Source: Escherichia coli (GTDB taxonomy: Bacteria; Pseudomonadota; Gammaproteobacteria; Enterobacterales; Enterobacteriaceae). From it: DNA of 31,776 bases. Made by a program: the position numbers and the translations under genes. The stretch lies in assembly GCF_003334355.1 (NCBI RefSeq), contig NZ_QOWP01000037.1. One strand, 5' to 3'. The notes beneath the pieces were generated by a model. It worked only from the letters and a program-made list of their open reading frames with translations. It made no database searches and was not told where the DNA came from. Of the stretch, positions 8,691 through 12,004 are shown piece by piece. The stretch's first letter is position 1; each line of letters starts with the position of its first letter.

Positions 8691-10043
8691 GTGTTTATTG
8701 GTTTTGATTACGGTACAGCAAACTGTTCAGTGGCGGTCATGCGTGACGGTAAACCGCATTTGCTAAAAATGGAAAACGACAGCACGCTGCTGCCTTCAAT
8801 GCTTTGCGCGCCAACGCGTGAAGCGGTAAGCGAATGGCTGTACCGCCATCATGATGTTCCGGCAGACGACGATGAAACGCAGGCGCTGTTACGTCGGGCG
8901 ATTCGTTATAACCGCGAAGAAGATATCGATGTTACGGCGAAAAGCGTGCAGTTCGGTCTTTCCTCACTGGCACAGTACATTGATGATCCAGAAGAAGTGT
9001 GGTTTGTGAAATCACCAAAATCGTTCCTCGGTGCCAGCGGCTTAAAACCGCAGCAGGTAGCGCTGTTTGAGGATCTGGTCTGCGCAATGATGTTGCACAT
9101 TCGCCAGCAGGCGCAGGCACAGCTGCCAGAAGCGATTACTCAGGCGGTGATTGGTCGTCCGATCAACTTCCAGGGGCTGGGCGGTGATGAAGCAAACACC
9201 CAGGCGCAAGGGATTCTGGAACGCGCGGCGAAGCGTGCCGGATTCAGGGACGTGGTATTCCAGTACGAGCCGGTCGCGGCTGGGCTGGATTACGAAGCCA
9301 CCTTGCAGGAAGAAAAACGGGTGCTGGTGGTGGATATCGGCGGTGGTACGACTGACTGTTCATTGCTGCTGATGGGGCCGCAGTGGCGTTCGCGTCTCGA
9401 TCGTGAAGCCAGCCTGCTGGGTCACAGTGGTTGCCGTATTGGCGGTAACGATCTGGATATCGCGCTGGCGTTTAAAAACCTGATGCCGTTACTGGGCATG
9501 GGTGGCGAAACCGAAAAAGGCATCGCCCTGCCGATTCTGCCGTGGTGGAATGCGGTTGCCATCAACGACGTTCCTGCACAGAGTGATTTCTACAGTAGTG
9601 CCAACGGTCGTCTGCTTAACGATCTGGTACGCGATGCCCGCGAACCGGAAAAAGTGGCCCTGTTACAGAAAGTCTGGCGTCAGCGTTTAAGCTATCGCCT
9701 GGTGCGTAGCGCAGAAGAGAGCAAAATCGCCCTTTCAAGCACTGCGGAAACCCGCGCCTCACTGCCGTTTATCAGCGATGAACTGGCTACGCTGATTAGC
9801 CAGCAAGGGCTGGAAAGCGCTCTCAGCCAGCCACTGGCGCGGATTCTGGAACAGGTGCAACTGGCGCTGGATAACGCCCAGGAAAAACCGGACGTTATCT
9901 ACCTGACCGGCGGTAGCGCCCGTTCGCCGCTGATTAAAAAAGCGCTGGCAGAACAGTTGCCGGGCATTCCGATTGCAGGCGGCGATGACTTTGGCTCCGT
10001 CACCGCCGGGCTGGCACGCTGGGCAGAAGTGGTATTTCGTTAA
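8691..10043 (+). CDS. yegD: Hsp70/actin-fold ATPase YegD (DnaK-like chaperone paralogue)
   Basis: Track ORF 8628..10043; the probable GTG start at 8691 gives 450 aa (VFIGFDYGTANCSVAV...). Hsp70-type phosphate-binding motifs IGFDYGTANC and VVDIGGGTTD are present. Confidence 0.8.
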   Translation: MFIGFDYGTANCSVAVMRDGKPHLLKMENDSTLLPSMLCAPTREAVSEWLYRHHDVPADDDETQALLRRAIRYNREEDIDVTAKSVQFGLSSLAQYIDDPEEVWFVKSPKSFLGASGLKPQQVALFEDLVCAMMLHIRQQAQAQLPEAITQAVIGRPINFQGLGGDEANTQAQGILERAAKRAGFRDVVFQYEPVAAGLDYEATLQEEKRVLVVDIGGGTTDCSLLLMGPQWRSRLDREASLLGHSGCRIGGNDLDIALAFKNLMPLLGMGGETEKGIALPILPWWNAVAINDVPAQSDFYSSANGRLLNDLVRDAREPEKVALLQKVWRQRLSYRLVRSAEESKIALSSTAETRASLPFISDELATLISQQGLESALSQPLARILEQVQLALDNAQEKPDVIYLTGGSARSPLIKKALAEQLPGIPIAGGDDFGSVTAGLARWAEVVFR

Positions 10044-10054
10044 AAGAAAATGGC

Positions 10055-12004
10055 TCAGCAGCGGCTTAAATCAGCCTGCGCCTGAGCCAGTTTTTCTGCC
10101 GCCTGACGTAACGGTTCCATCAACGGCATGGTCCGTGCTGGAGCATGAAGGCGGAATCGCTGCAACTCTGTCGCGCCGACAGTCAACGTCGATTCCAGCC
10201 GATGTCGTTTGGCGGTCATTTTCGCCATTACCGCTTGTCTGTCTGCTGGCGTTACCGCTTCATTCGGCCTGAACACAAAACGGCGTTCGCAACTTGCTTT
10301 CCAGTCGATAACTGCCTGGGTCAGATGATCACCAAACCCTTTCACTTGCTTAACCCCACGACGGGTAACATCCGCTGCTGTTTCAATACCAAAGGACCGT
10401 AACGCCGCTTTACGCGCAGGGCCAACGCCGGGAATAGAGGCAACATCAATAAAAAATCCCTCCAGAAACTTCTGCTTCTGCCGTTCCCTTGCGGTGTCGT
10501 GAAGTGCTGCCAGAGCACGTTTTTCTTCTTCCGGTAACCCGAGCATTTCGTCCTTCATTTTTTCGAGCATCGTCCGTTTGGCGATAAAACCTTCCAGCCC
10601 GCCCAACTGTTGGATCTGGCTGAATAAATGGTCATAGTCCATTTTCGCGCGATTAAATGCCTCACGGCGTTGCTGAACTTCTGCTTTGTACGCTTTGCTT
10701 GTCAGACTGCCAATAATCCAGATAGCCGACAGCACAGGAACCAAAATAATATAACGCGGTTCTGCCTGAAGGCCGCAAAGCAACAGCGATAACGCTGACA
10801 GTGCGATCTCAATCAGAATGATGTATTCGCGCCGTAACAGGCCTAAAGGAAGCGGCCTGCCAGTCGGTTGGAAATGATCGGGTAATGGCAATTGCAATGC
10901 TGGCGGTGCTACTGACGCCATCACCATCGCCCAGACTTTCGCCAGCACAAAATCACCGCTGGTGGTAATGACCTCTTCGCCGAGATCAATAAAATAGATA
11001 ACGCCTTGATTATCCAGCGCACACCACGGGCAGTCGGTCAAATGAGCGGGATAAACATGCATTGCCGAAACGGGACATTTCTTTAACTGTTGGCGCAGAG
11101 AATCAAGTGCCGCTACCCACGCTTTAGCCGTCGGACGCCCGGTTGCCACGCCACTTTCCGTGAATGCCTGCTGAAACATGGCTTCAACATCACTCGGTAA
11201 CATCGATAGCGGAATCGATCGTGGCGGCGGTTTTAAACCACGTCGCTGATTATCTGACGCGTAGGCATAACGGAAATGGGTAATATCCGTCTCCAGCGCA
11301 TTACCCGCATCAGAGATAAGCGGCACACCAGAATAAGGATGCCGGCCACCAAACAAGACGTGAAAAATCAGCAACGCAAGGCCAAAATTATCGTGATTTT
11401 CTGTGCGTTCAAAGCCGACAAATGACGACAAGGTTTGTAGCTCTGGCGGCGTAAAATGCGACACGCCGACTTCGCATAAATGCAGTGTGCCATTGGCGTT
11501 AATCTGAAAGGAGTCGCTATCAATCAGTACCACTTTGCTGTCGCGACCTACCATAAAACTGTTCTGGTTTACGTCACCCACGACGTGCCCGTGCTCGTGA
11601 ACCGTAGCAAAAGATGAAGCAATATTGCGCGCAACATAGAGTAGAAAATCCCACGCACAATGAGGGTAACTCTGGCGACGATGTGCCGGGCTATAGATCA
11701 TATGAATCGGTTCTTTACCAGAAACTTTTGGCATCATAAAACCGATAACTTTTCCGCCTCGTCCACCGTGAAGCGTTGCCTGCGGCCAGGCGACATAATT
11801 CAACAACTGCGCGTCAGCTGTCGCAGCCATAAAGGCAAGTTTGTCCTGTTTTAAGGCGGGTGGCGGCGTGTGATAAATCTTGGCGACGCTATCGACAAAC
11901 TCATTGATATCATAAACCGCGCCTTCACCGCCTTTGCCCAGTTCACGGCCTGGCGTAACGCACTCACCAGTAGCAGTATATAAAGTGGGTTTCATGGTAA
12001 CCAC
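10055..12004 (-). CDS. yegI: eukaryotic-like Ser/Thr protein kinase YegI, membrane-anchored, with C-terminal HhH-like motif
   Basis: 649-aa ORF. Glycine-rich loop ELGKGGEGAVY, conserved-Lys region VAKIY, catalytic-loop-like HGHVVGDVNQNS and DSDSF. Two hydrophobic segments (YIILIEIALSALSLLLCGL, YIILVPVLSAIWIIGSL), then FIDVASIPGVGPARKAALRSFGI (helix-hairpin-helix-like). The exact start (M1 vs M4) is uncertain. Confidence 0.8.
   Translation of the reverse strand: MVTMKPTLYTATGECVTPGRELGKGGEGAVYDINEFVDSVAKIYHTPPPALKQDKLAFMAATADAQLLNYVAWPQATLHGGRGGKVIGFMMPKVSGKEPIHMIYSPAHRRQSYPHCAWDFLLYVARNIASSFATVHEHGHVVGDVNQNSFMVGRDSKVVLIDSDSFQINANGTLHLCEVGVSHFTPPELQTLSSFVGFERTENHDNFGLALLIFHVLFGGRHPYSGVPLISDAGNALETDITHFRYAYASDNQRRGLKPPPRSIPLSMLPSDVEAMFQQAFTESGVATGRPTAKAWVAALDSLRQQLKKCPVSAMHVYPAHLTDCPWCALDNQGVIYFIDLGEEVITTSGDFVLAKVWAMVMASVAPPALQLPLPDHFQPTGRPLPLGLLRREYIILIEIALSALSLLLCGLQAEPRYIILVPVLSAIWIIGSLTSKAYKAEVQQRREAFNRAKMDYDHLFSQIQQLGGLEGFIAKRTMLEKMKDEMLGLPEEEKRALAALHDTARERQKQKFLEGFFIDVASIPGVGPARKAALRSFGIETAADVTRRGVKQVKGFGDHLTQAVIDWKASCERRFVFRPNEAVTPADRQAVMAKMTAKRHRLESTLTVGATELQRFRLHAPARTMPLMEPLRQAAEKLAQAQADLSRC

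Follow-up and report, generated by a model that had tools for sequence, protein, structure and literature searches.

A putative shared bidirectional terminator at the convergent yegD-yegI junction of Escherichia coli

Genes at the junction

Two convergent transcription units of Escherichia coli meet in the window analyzed here, a stretch of 31,776 nucleotides. The gene names yegD, yegI, pphC, and yegL come from an identical E. coli genome as annotated in RefSeq. The first unit, yegD (8691-10043, plus strand), begins with a GTG start codon and, according to the list of open reading frames, its translation, and the RefSeq annotation, encodes a 450-aa protein with an Hsp70-family nucleotide-binding domain. 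Its product matches the NCBIfam model NF008673 over residues 1-450 with 811 bits against a cut-off of 331, identifying it as the YegD equivalog of the Hsp70 family. The Pfam families HSP70 and MreB_Mbl are matched as well, and the models for DnaK and HscA match YegD in the nucleotide-binding part only, with scores far under their cut-offs.

The opposing unit, yegL-pphC-yegI, is a three-gene operon with 4-nt overlaps between its reading frames, whose products are, in order, a vWA protein, a phosphatase of the PP2C type, and a kinase of the Ser/Thr type. The first gene of the operon is yegL (12750-13409, minus strand), specifying the vWA-domain protein, followed by the phosphatase gene pphC (yegK; 11992-12753, minus strand), which shares its 4-nt overlap with yegI. 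The kinase gene, yegI (10055-11995, minus strand), encodes 646 aa from the RefSeq start, and its open reading frame reaches 12004. Homologues of the triad carry the Pfam domains VWA (found in those of yegL) and PP2C_2, and kinase and phosphatase activities of the triad proteins have been published (bioRxiv 10.1101/303594). The yegJ insertion that lies inside the K-12 triad, upstream of yegI, is absent from the window.

At the junction itself, the TAA stop codon of yegD occupies 10041-10043, and that of yegI occupies 10055-10057 (TCA on the plus strand, TGA on the minus strand). As originally predicted, the two are separated in the sequence by only 11 nt (10044-10054, AAGAAAATGGC), compared with 12 nt in K-12. 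Such proximity is not rare; in a sample of four 50-kb segments of K-12 annotation, six of 36 convergent CDS pairs (17%) either overlapped or were separated by 12 nt or less.

A hairpin with a U-tract in each direction

Folding of the junction reveals a 39-nt hairpin at 10051-10089, with an 8-bp outer stem (UGGCUCAG/CUGAGCCA) enclosing a 2x2 internal loop, an inner stem of 2 bp plus 4 bp with one bulge, and a 6-nt loop. The hairpin begins 7 nt past the yegD stop codon, and thus sits at the 3' ends of both converging units. It spans the gap and the final 11 codons of yegI, the stop codon of which is buried inside the stem. In the fold, the gap consists wholly of terminator parts, namely an A/U-tract (10044-10050) followed by the four bases that open the hairpin (10051-10054). 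In both directions, a U-rich tract directly follows the stem on its 3' side. On the plus strand, the tail is GUUUUUCU (10090-10097), located within the yegI coding sequence and serving the yegD direction. On the minus strand, the tail is UUUUCUUUU (10050-10042), serving the yegI direction; it reads AAAAGAAAA on the plus strand, where two of its bases are also the final two of the yegD TAA. The original prediction had held that there was no room for terminators on either strand, a view contradicted by this hairpin and its A- and T-tracts, which lie across the gap and are embedded in the 3' end of yegI.

The hairpin alone folds with -21.8 kcal/mol on the plus strand and -24.5 kcal/mol on the minus strand. 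With its flanks, the values are -26.3 kcal/mol (z = -3.9) and -28.5 kcal/mol (z = -4.6), respectively, and 200 shuffles per strand yielded no fold of equal stability. A similar result was obtained for the K-12 hairpin, where at most one of 200 shuffles was equally stable. A standard terminator scan missed the site because its stem has an internal loop. A custom scan, run over the two strands of the whole window, placed it second (minus strand) and third (plus strand) among 81 candidates; it had the best U-tracts among the top matches and was the only site in the window to score on both strands. Likewise, of seven tight convergent junctions compared, only yegD-yegI had one hairpin that scored on both strands. 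At the junction, Rfam revealed neither a REP element nor a known RNA family, its sole matches being Sib RNAs farther downstream.

It is probable that the junction carries a shared bidirectional terminator of a common convergent class, and that the adjacency of yegD and the triad is historical rather than functional. In this model, yegD and the yegL-pphC-yegI operon would both end at a single Rho-independent terminator, the hairpin of which would arise from the terminal codons of yegI, its stop codon included. In the yegI direction, the U-tract would be drawn from both the 11-nt gap and the stop codon of yegD; in the yegD direction, it would be drawn from the T-run inside yegI. The yegD mRNA would then be expected to end at about 10096-10098 and the yegI mRNA at about 10042-10044. 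Were both ends to fall as predicted, the two transcripts would share a fixed overlap of approximately 55 nt, most of it consisting of the self-folded hairpin.

Bidirectional terminators between convergent pairs are reportedly widespread in E. coli (bioRxiv 10.1101/2022.10.23.513370). The yegD-yegI arrangement is an ordinary, already known one and probably belongs to a frequent class of convergent pairs in E. coli whose terminators overlap. The bidirectional terminators of the SEnd-seq class (Ju et al. 2019, as cited in bioRxiv 10.1101/2022.10.23.513370; for example, ynaJ-uspE) likewise use one stem-loop for both units, flanked by an A-tract and, opposite it, a T-tract that together provide a U-tract in each direction, and their RNA 3' ends overlap across the hairpin, as predicted for yegD-yegI. 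Unlike the members of that class, the yegD-yegI hairpin is not intergenic but lies within the last 11 codons of yegI, stop codon included, and is predicted from sequence. In addition, many of the bidirectional terminators in bioRxiv 10.1101/2022.10.23.513370 are unlike intrinsic terminators, whereas the one at yegD-yegI resembles them. The junction illustrates that a tiny convergent gap does not imply a missing terminator, as the final codons of a gene can themselves encode one; beyond annotation, the importance of the pair is small.

Transcript overlap, translation, and coding constraint

The yegD and yegI transcripts very probably overlap at their 3' ends. In an RNA-seq survey of MG1655, the pair was listed among 165 convergent pairs with overlapping transcription, or excludons (PMC12288877, Table 1). 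The overlap of each of these pairs was seen in at least half of 58 transcriptomes, and terminators were predicted to overlap in 146 of the 165 (PMC12288877). The yegD-yegI entry in this ExcludonFinder catalogue has a short intergenic distance and, in common with those 146, an overlapping predicted terminator. The catalogue refers to K-12, however, which differs from the window in its 12-nt gap and in the yegJ insertion upstream of yegI, and the entry denotes transcript overlap, not mutual exclusion. The published overlap call also rests on low coverage, since the triad is reportedly transcribed only barely, or not at all, in laboratory culture (PMC13232886; bioRxiv 10.1101/303594). The overlap originally predicted for this pair is therefore borne out by its presence in the excludon table, but the reasoning that derived it from an absent terminator is not, and the predicted obligatory overlap amounts to only about 55 nt.

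How efficiently the hairpin terminates may depend on translation. At the tR2 terminator, a stop codon placed 5 bp upstream cuts termination from approximately 90% to less than 10% (PMC4824070). At yegD-yegI, where one stop codon (yegD) precedes the hairpin by 7 nt and the other (yegI) is buried in it, the tR2 data imply that real termination efficiency could be low under coupled translation. An unlikely alternative takes this further and holds that the site is a leaky, ribosome-gated terminator operating as an excludon. A ribosome finishing either gene would block folding of the hairpin, antisense transcription would read through into the partner, and whichever unit is expressed more strongly would repress its partner by polymerase collision or RNase III cleavage. 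The positions of the two stop codons are consistent with such gating, as is the observation that termination is repressed in vivo not only by the stop codon near tR2, but also where a terminator lies late in a coding region (PMC4824070). The listing of the pair as an excludon (PMC12288877) and the description of collisions at bidirectional terminators (bioRxiv 10.1101/2022.10.23.513370) also fit. Against these points, the triad is essentially silent under the conditions tested, leaving little to interfere with. Furthermore, SMRT-Cappable-seq lists yegD solely as a monocistronic unit, giving it a start site but no end coordinate (PMC6131387), and many tight convergent pairs have a like geometry, so that nothing in it is special to yegD-yegI. 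The boldest form of this idea starts from the fact that both stop codons fall within a ribosome footprint of the hairpin. Translation of one unit would switch off that unit's own termination, so that translation would decide which of the two is expressed, the core Hsp70-like gene or a kinase-phosphatase-vWA cassette gained by horizontal transfer. This is quite improbable; if it were true, the junction would offer a small, naturally occurring case of mutual exclusion under translational control.

It is also rather improbable that the hairpin is a by-product of repeated Ala-Gln codons with no terminator function, transcription being ended elsewhere through Rho or collision. The conserved peptide LAQAQAD is indeed encoded in the 5' half of the hairpin, and the longer KLAQAQADLS is conserved in distant homologues. 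Moreover, neither yegD nor yegI has a mapped 3' end in the Term-seq supplements of eLife 62438 or TERMITe (PMC12207403). However, the complementary arm is peculiar to Escherichia. It consists of the last base of a Cys codon, the UGA stop codon, and the GCCA that lies in the gap, and homologues from Klebsiella, Piscinibacter, and Chromobacterium lack it despite encoding the same peptide. The presence of U-tracts flanking the hairpin in both directions and a stability that no shuffle reached also argue against a mere coding effect.

Conservation within the genus must be read with more caution. The hairpin is kept in K-12, in three other Escherichia species (L006, L007, and L008), and in E. albertii, but this conservation is confounded with protein constraint because the hairpin lies in coding sequence. 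E. albertii also speaks against the coding explanation, as there yegI has been deleted and the hairpin survives, its A-tract having decayed to AAAGGAGACG. The six Escherichia sequences show few substitutions in the hairpin, either transitions giving G-U pairs or single mismatches, with no clear compensatory changes. Covariation was set aside as evidence for the hairpin, given that just six Escherichia sequences were available and that the changes are confounded with synonymous sites of yegI.

yegD and the kinase-phosphatase-vWA triad across genomes

The shared-terminator model treats yegD as an older core gene, with a self-contained vWA-PP2C-kinase cassette, equipped with its own terminator, lying just past its stop codon; on this view, the adjacency would be historical. 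Among 80 species loci of Enterobacteriaceae carrying YegD at 82% identity or more, yegD adjoins alkA in 78, and an intact triad is adjacent to yegD in only three, all of them Escherichia. In Salmonella and Citrobacter, the gene order is yegD, ibs, mdtA, with no triad. When L003 and L005 were compared with the window by blastn, homology to these genera broke off precisely at the end of yegD, at its stop codon, and began again at 13573. The blastn results and the synteny table together delimit an Escherichia-specific segment of 3.5 kb (10044-13572) comprising the triad, its upstream region, and the terminator. The comparison thereby dates the yegL-pphC-yegI triad as an Escherichia-specific segment abutting the yegD stop codon, which argues against assigning YegD a role with the triad from gene adjacency.

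As to composition, GC content is about 57% in yegD and about 50% in the triad, a difference that merely suggests horizontal transfer. Base composition was not relied upon as evidence for such transfer, being suggestive at most.

The original prediction also ventured that YegD works with the triad. No phylogenetic co-occurrence was found, and a functional partnership is not supported by conserved neighbourhood. The gene is conserved without the triad in about 75 species outside Escherichia, and in E. albertii yegD is intact although the triad has been deleted. Conversely, none of five triads outside Escherichia has an Hsp70-like gene within 10 kb, and none of three distant YegD homologues has a kinase, PP2C, or vWA neighbour. 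Both yegD and a triad are present in Klebsiella spallanzanii, where they occupy separate loci. The full earlier reading, which combined a missing terminator and a long obligatory 3' overlap with YegD as chaperone or ATPase partner of the triad, is thus highly improbable; the presence of the yegD-yegI block in 5407 of 5426 E. coli genomes and the rise of yegD mRNA upon overexpression of yegJ, which lies inside the K-12 triad (PMC13232886), speak for it, but it is opposed by the canonical two-way terminator, by the comparative findings above, and by the placement of the units on opposite strands, with yegD regulated separately, including translational activation by RyhB (PMC4666370).

In a PADLOC search, PphC and YegL matched no family and YegI gave only weak kinase-domain hits (E ~1e-4), from a library that may lack TerY-P models. 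The cassette resembles the TerY-P triad (Anantharaman et al. 2012 and Gao et al. 2020, as cited in PMC11090510). The domain content and gene order of yegL-pphC-yegI are those of TerY-P. The likeness extends to overlapping reading frames and to homologues that, elsewhere in bacteria, are surrounded by genes for restriction and further defence functions. The TerY-P triad as described includes no Hsp70-type partner (PMC11090510). Finally, NCBI names the C-terminal part of YegI as helix-hairpin-helix, whereas the described TerY-P variants carry an OB-fold or a zinc ribbon.

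The yegD-yegI junction and its chromosomal setting

The region is part of the E. coli chromosome: the 5.2-kb segment at 8400-13600, used as a query, is 100% identical to E. coli strain PSS-12, and of 5426 complete E. coli genomes, 5407 cover at least 80% of it. In RefSeq, the identical genome is annotated with the gene order dgcE, alkA (-), yegD (+), yegI (-), pphC (-), yegL (-), two Ibs toxins, and mdtA; K-12 differs in having yegJ between yegI and pphC and a yegD-yegI gap of 12 nt. The yegD ORF (8691-10043, + strand) begins with GTG, encodes 450 amino acids, and ends in a TAA stop (10041-10043), and the yegI stop (- strand, 10055-10057) reads TCA on the + strand. 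Because the former ends at 10043 and the latter begins at 10055, the gap is 11 nt (10044-10054), and the original prediction was correct on both its size and its coordinates. YegD belongs to the Hsp70 family, scoring 811 bits against its own curated model, NF008673 (cut-off, 331); the DnaK and HscA models match only its nucleotide-binding part, with scores far under their cut-offs.

So short a gap is not unusual, since six of 36 convergent CDS pairs (17%), sampled from four 50-kb stretches of K-12 annotation, are as tight, with gaps of at most 12 nt or an overlap. These are yadE-panD (3 nt) and ypdC-fryA (2 nt), together with the overlapping yfeH-ypeB (-4), ymiD-pdeR (-19), ysaE-hokA (-24), and yiaC-bisC (-32). 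At the adjacent convergent pair, dgcE-alkA, 108 nt separate the genes in the window (7600-7709); as called in Salmonella and Citrobacter, the two share 33 nt (6998-7030 of locus L003).

A putative bidirectional terminator

It had been supposed that the gap leaves no room for terminators on either strand. This proved wrong, as the sequence at 10042-10097 (AAAAGAAAA-UGGCUCAG..CUGAGCCA-GUUUUUCU) forms a hairpin flanked 5' by an A-tract and 3' by a U-tract. With a folding energy of -26.3 kcal/mol (z = -3.9) for the + strand and -28.5 kcal/mol (z = -4.6) for the - strand, it is more stable than every one of 200 dinucleotide-preserving shuffles on either strand, and the K-12 junction sequence shows the same folding behaviour. 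A standard terminator scan missed the hairpin because the stem holds a 2x2 internal loop. A custom scan for one hairpin with a T-rich tail after it, run over both strands of the whole 31.8-kb window, returned 81 candidates, among which this site ranks second on the - strand (-24.5, tail TTTTCTTTT) and third on the + strand (-21.8, tail GTTTTTCT) and is the only one to score on both. By sequence criteria, then, the junction qualifies as a candidate bidirectional intrinsic terminator, a type described as prevalent at convergent pairs in E. coli (bioRxiv 10.1101/2022.10.23.513370). The top hairpin of the scan, at 23763-23808 (-), has an energy of -24.8 kcal/mol and a poor T-tail (TTTATCTT).

Rather than being intergenic, the hairpin is built into the end of yegI. 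The arm at 10051-10058 includes the yegI stop codon and the remainder consists of the last yegI codons, and the U-tract in the yegI direction is made up of the 11-nt gap and the yegD stop codon. At none of the six other tight K-12 junctions did the same scan find one hairpin that scores on both strands; some of these junctions, for example yfeH-ypeB, have a one-sided hairpin within the partner gene. Conservation of the hairpin cannot be separated from coding constraint, because the peptide that it encodes, KLAQAQADLS, is itself conserved in homologues at 58-62% identity. The complementary arm (the last base of a Cys codon, the UGA stop, and GCCA from the gap) is specific to Escherichia, being absent from those homologues despite the shared peptide. 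In Escherichia albertii (L009, 9351-9560), a deletion of ~3.2 kb joins window ~10124 to ~13341, removing pphC entirely and most of both yegI and yegL; yegD is intact (95% identity), and the yegI 3' hairpin remains, as does a piece of yegL from its 5' end. The A-tract in the yegI direction has decayed there to AAAGGAGACG, a single case that fits the shared-terminator model.

Overlap of the two transcripts

If both units end by intrinsic termination at the U-tracts, the yegD mRNA would stop near 10096-10098 and the yegI mRNA near 10042-10044. The transcripts would then overlap by ~55 nt, mainly self-folded hairpin, because both would use one shared bidirectional terminator. The original prediction of overlapping 3' ends reached the right conclusion, but such overlap is ordinary and this one already catalogued: yegD-yegI and the neighbouring dgcE-alkA are among 165 convergent pairs in the ExcludonFinder RNA-seq survey, in which transcription overlaps in at least half of 58 MG1655 transcriptomes and predicted terminators overlap at 146 of the 165 (PMC12288877). 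The pair is listed as a convergent excludon by overlapping transcription rather than by demonstrated mutual exclusion.

Coupling of translation to transcription may make the shared terminator leaky, as the stop codons lie close to the hairpin (7 nt away for yegD) or within its stem (yegI). At terminator tR2, termination fell from ~90% to <10% when the distance of an upstream stop codon was cut from 28 bp to 5 bp, and terminators placed late in coding regions were likewise repressed (PMC4824070). An alternative reading builds on this, in which the pair is a ribosome-gated excludon; we consider that reading improbable.

The published 3'-end and transcript datasets searched contain no mapped 3' end for yegD or yegI. 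SMRT-Cappable-seq reports yegD as a monocistronic unit from 2147647, with no entry for b2070-b2073 (PMC6131387), and transcription of the yegL-pphC-yegI triad in culture is reported as none or barely any (PMC13232886; bioRxiv 10.1101/303594). In K-12, this places the start of yegD transcription 27 nt before the start codon (window ~8664); a simple search for + strand promoters gave no sigma-70-like site at that position. The gene also has control of its own, its translation being activated by RyhB (PMC4666370).

YegD and the triad across species

It had also been speculated that YegD works with the triad, to be judged by co-occurrence across genomes; so judged, the idea does not hold up, and comparative gene neighbourhoods speak against it. 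In a YegD scan of one genome per species (80 loci at ≥82% identity, neighbours by tblastn), alkA lies directly upstream of yegD in 76 loci and at most 4 kb away in two more, the remaining two being cut or having a partial alkA match only. YegI, PphC, and YegL adjoin yegD in three of the 80, all from other Escherichia species (L006-L008). The order in Salmonella and Citrobacter is yegD, ibs, mdtA, and window homology to them ends exactly at the yegD stop (10043) and restarts at 13573; 10044-13572 is therefore an Escherichia-specific 3.5-kb segment containing the triad and the putative terminator. For three more distant YegD homologues (55%, 46%, and 42% identity), the neighbouring genes are all unrelated.

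The closest YegI homologues outside Escherichia (~62% identity) are scattered among Klebsiella spallanzanii, Klebsiella aerogenes, Piscinibacter, and Chromobacterium. Five non-Escherichia triad loci were inspected (L086, L088, L089, L097, and L098, from K. spallanzanii, Piscinibacter, Chromobacterium, and two metagenome contigs), and each holds a compact vWA-PP2C-kinase cassette at ~8570-11950, with an Hsp70-like gene within 10 kb in none. K. spallanzanii carries yegD (L040) and the triad (L086) at separate loci. Because four of the five cassettes adjoin type I restriction-modification, GmrSD, BrxR, JetB, AbiH, KAP NTPase, Mrr, or Tn7 genes, with SymE and a Schlafen-like helicase also among these neighbours, the arrangement suggests that these cassettes are mobile and of a defence type; the fifth neighbourhood is mostly unannotated. 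The gene content of yegL-pphC-yegI is the same as that defining the TerY-P triad (PMC11090510); PADLOC returned no match for PphC or YegL and thus no support for that assignment. The only hint of cross-talk between yegD and the triad comes from yegJ, a gene absent from the window, whose overexpression raises yegD mRNA in K-12 (PMC13232886).

The triad forms a tight operon in the window, its ORFs overlapping by 4 nt each (11992-11995, 12750-12753). In K-12 (L002, 6186-6647), the opposite-strand yegJ (DUF2314), reported from K-lineage strains only (PMC13232886), splits yegI from pphC. Finally, three full-length + strand matches to SIB_RNA (RF00113; 13556-13704, 13891-14033, and 14218-14360; 140-144 bits each) indicate three tandem Sib/Ibs type I toxin-antitoxin modules between yegL and mdtA, versus two in K-12 (sibA/ibsA and sibB/ibsB) and just two Ibs toxins in the identical strain's RefSeq annotation.
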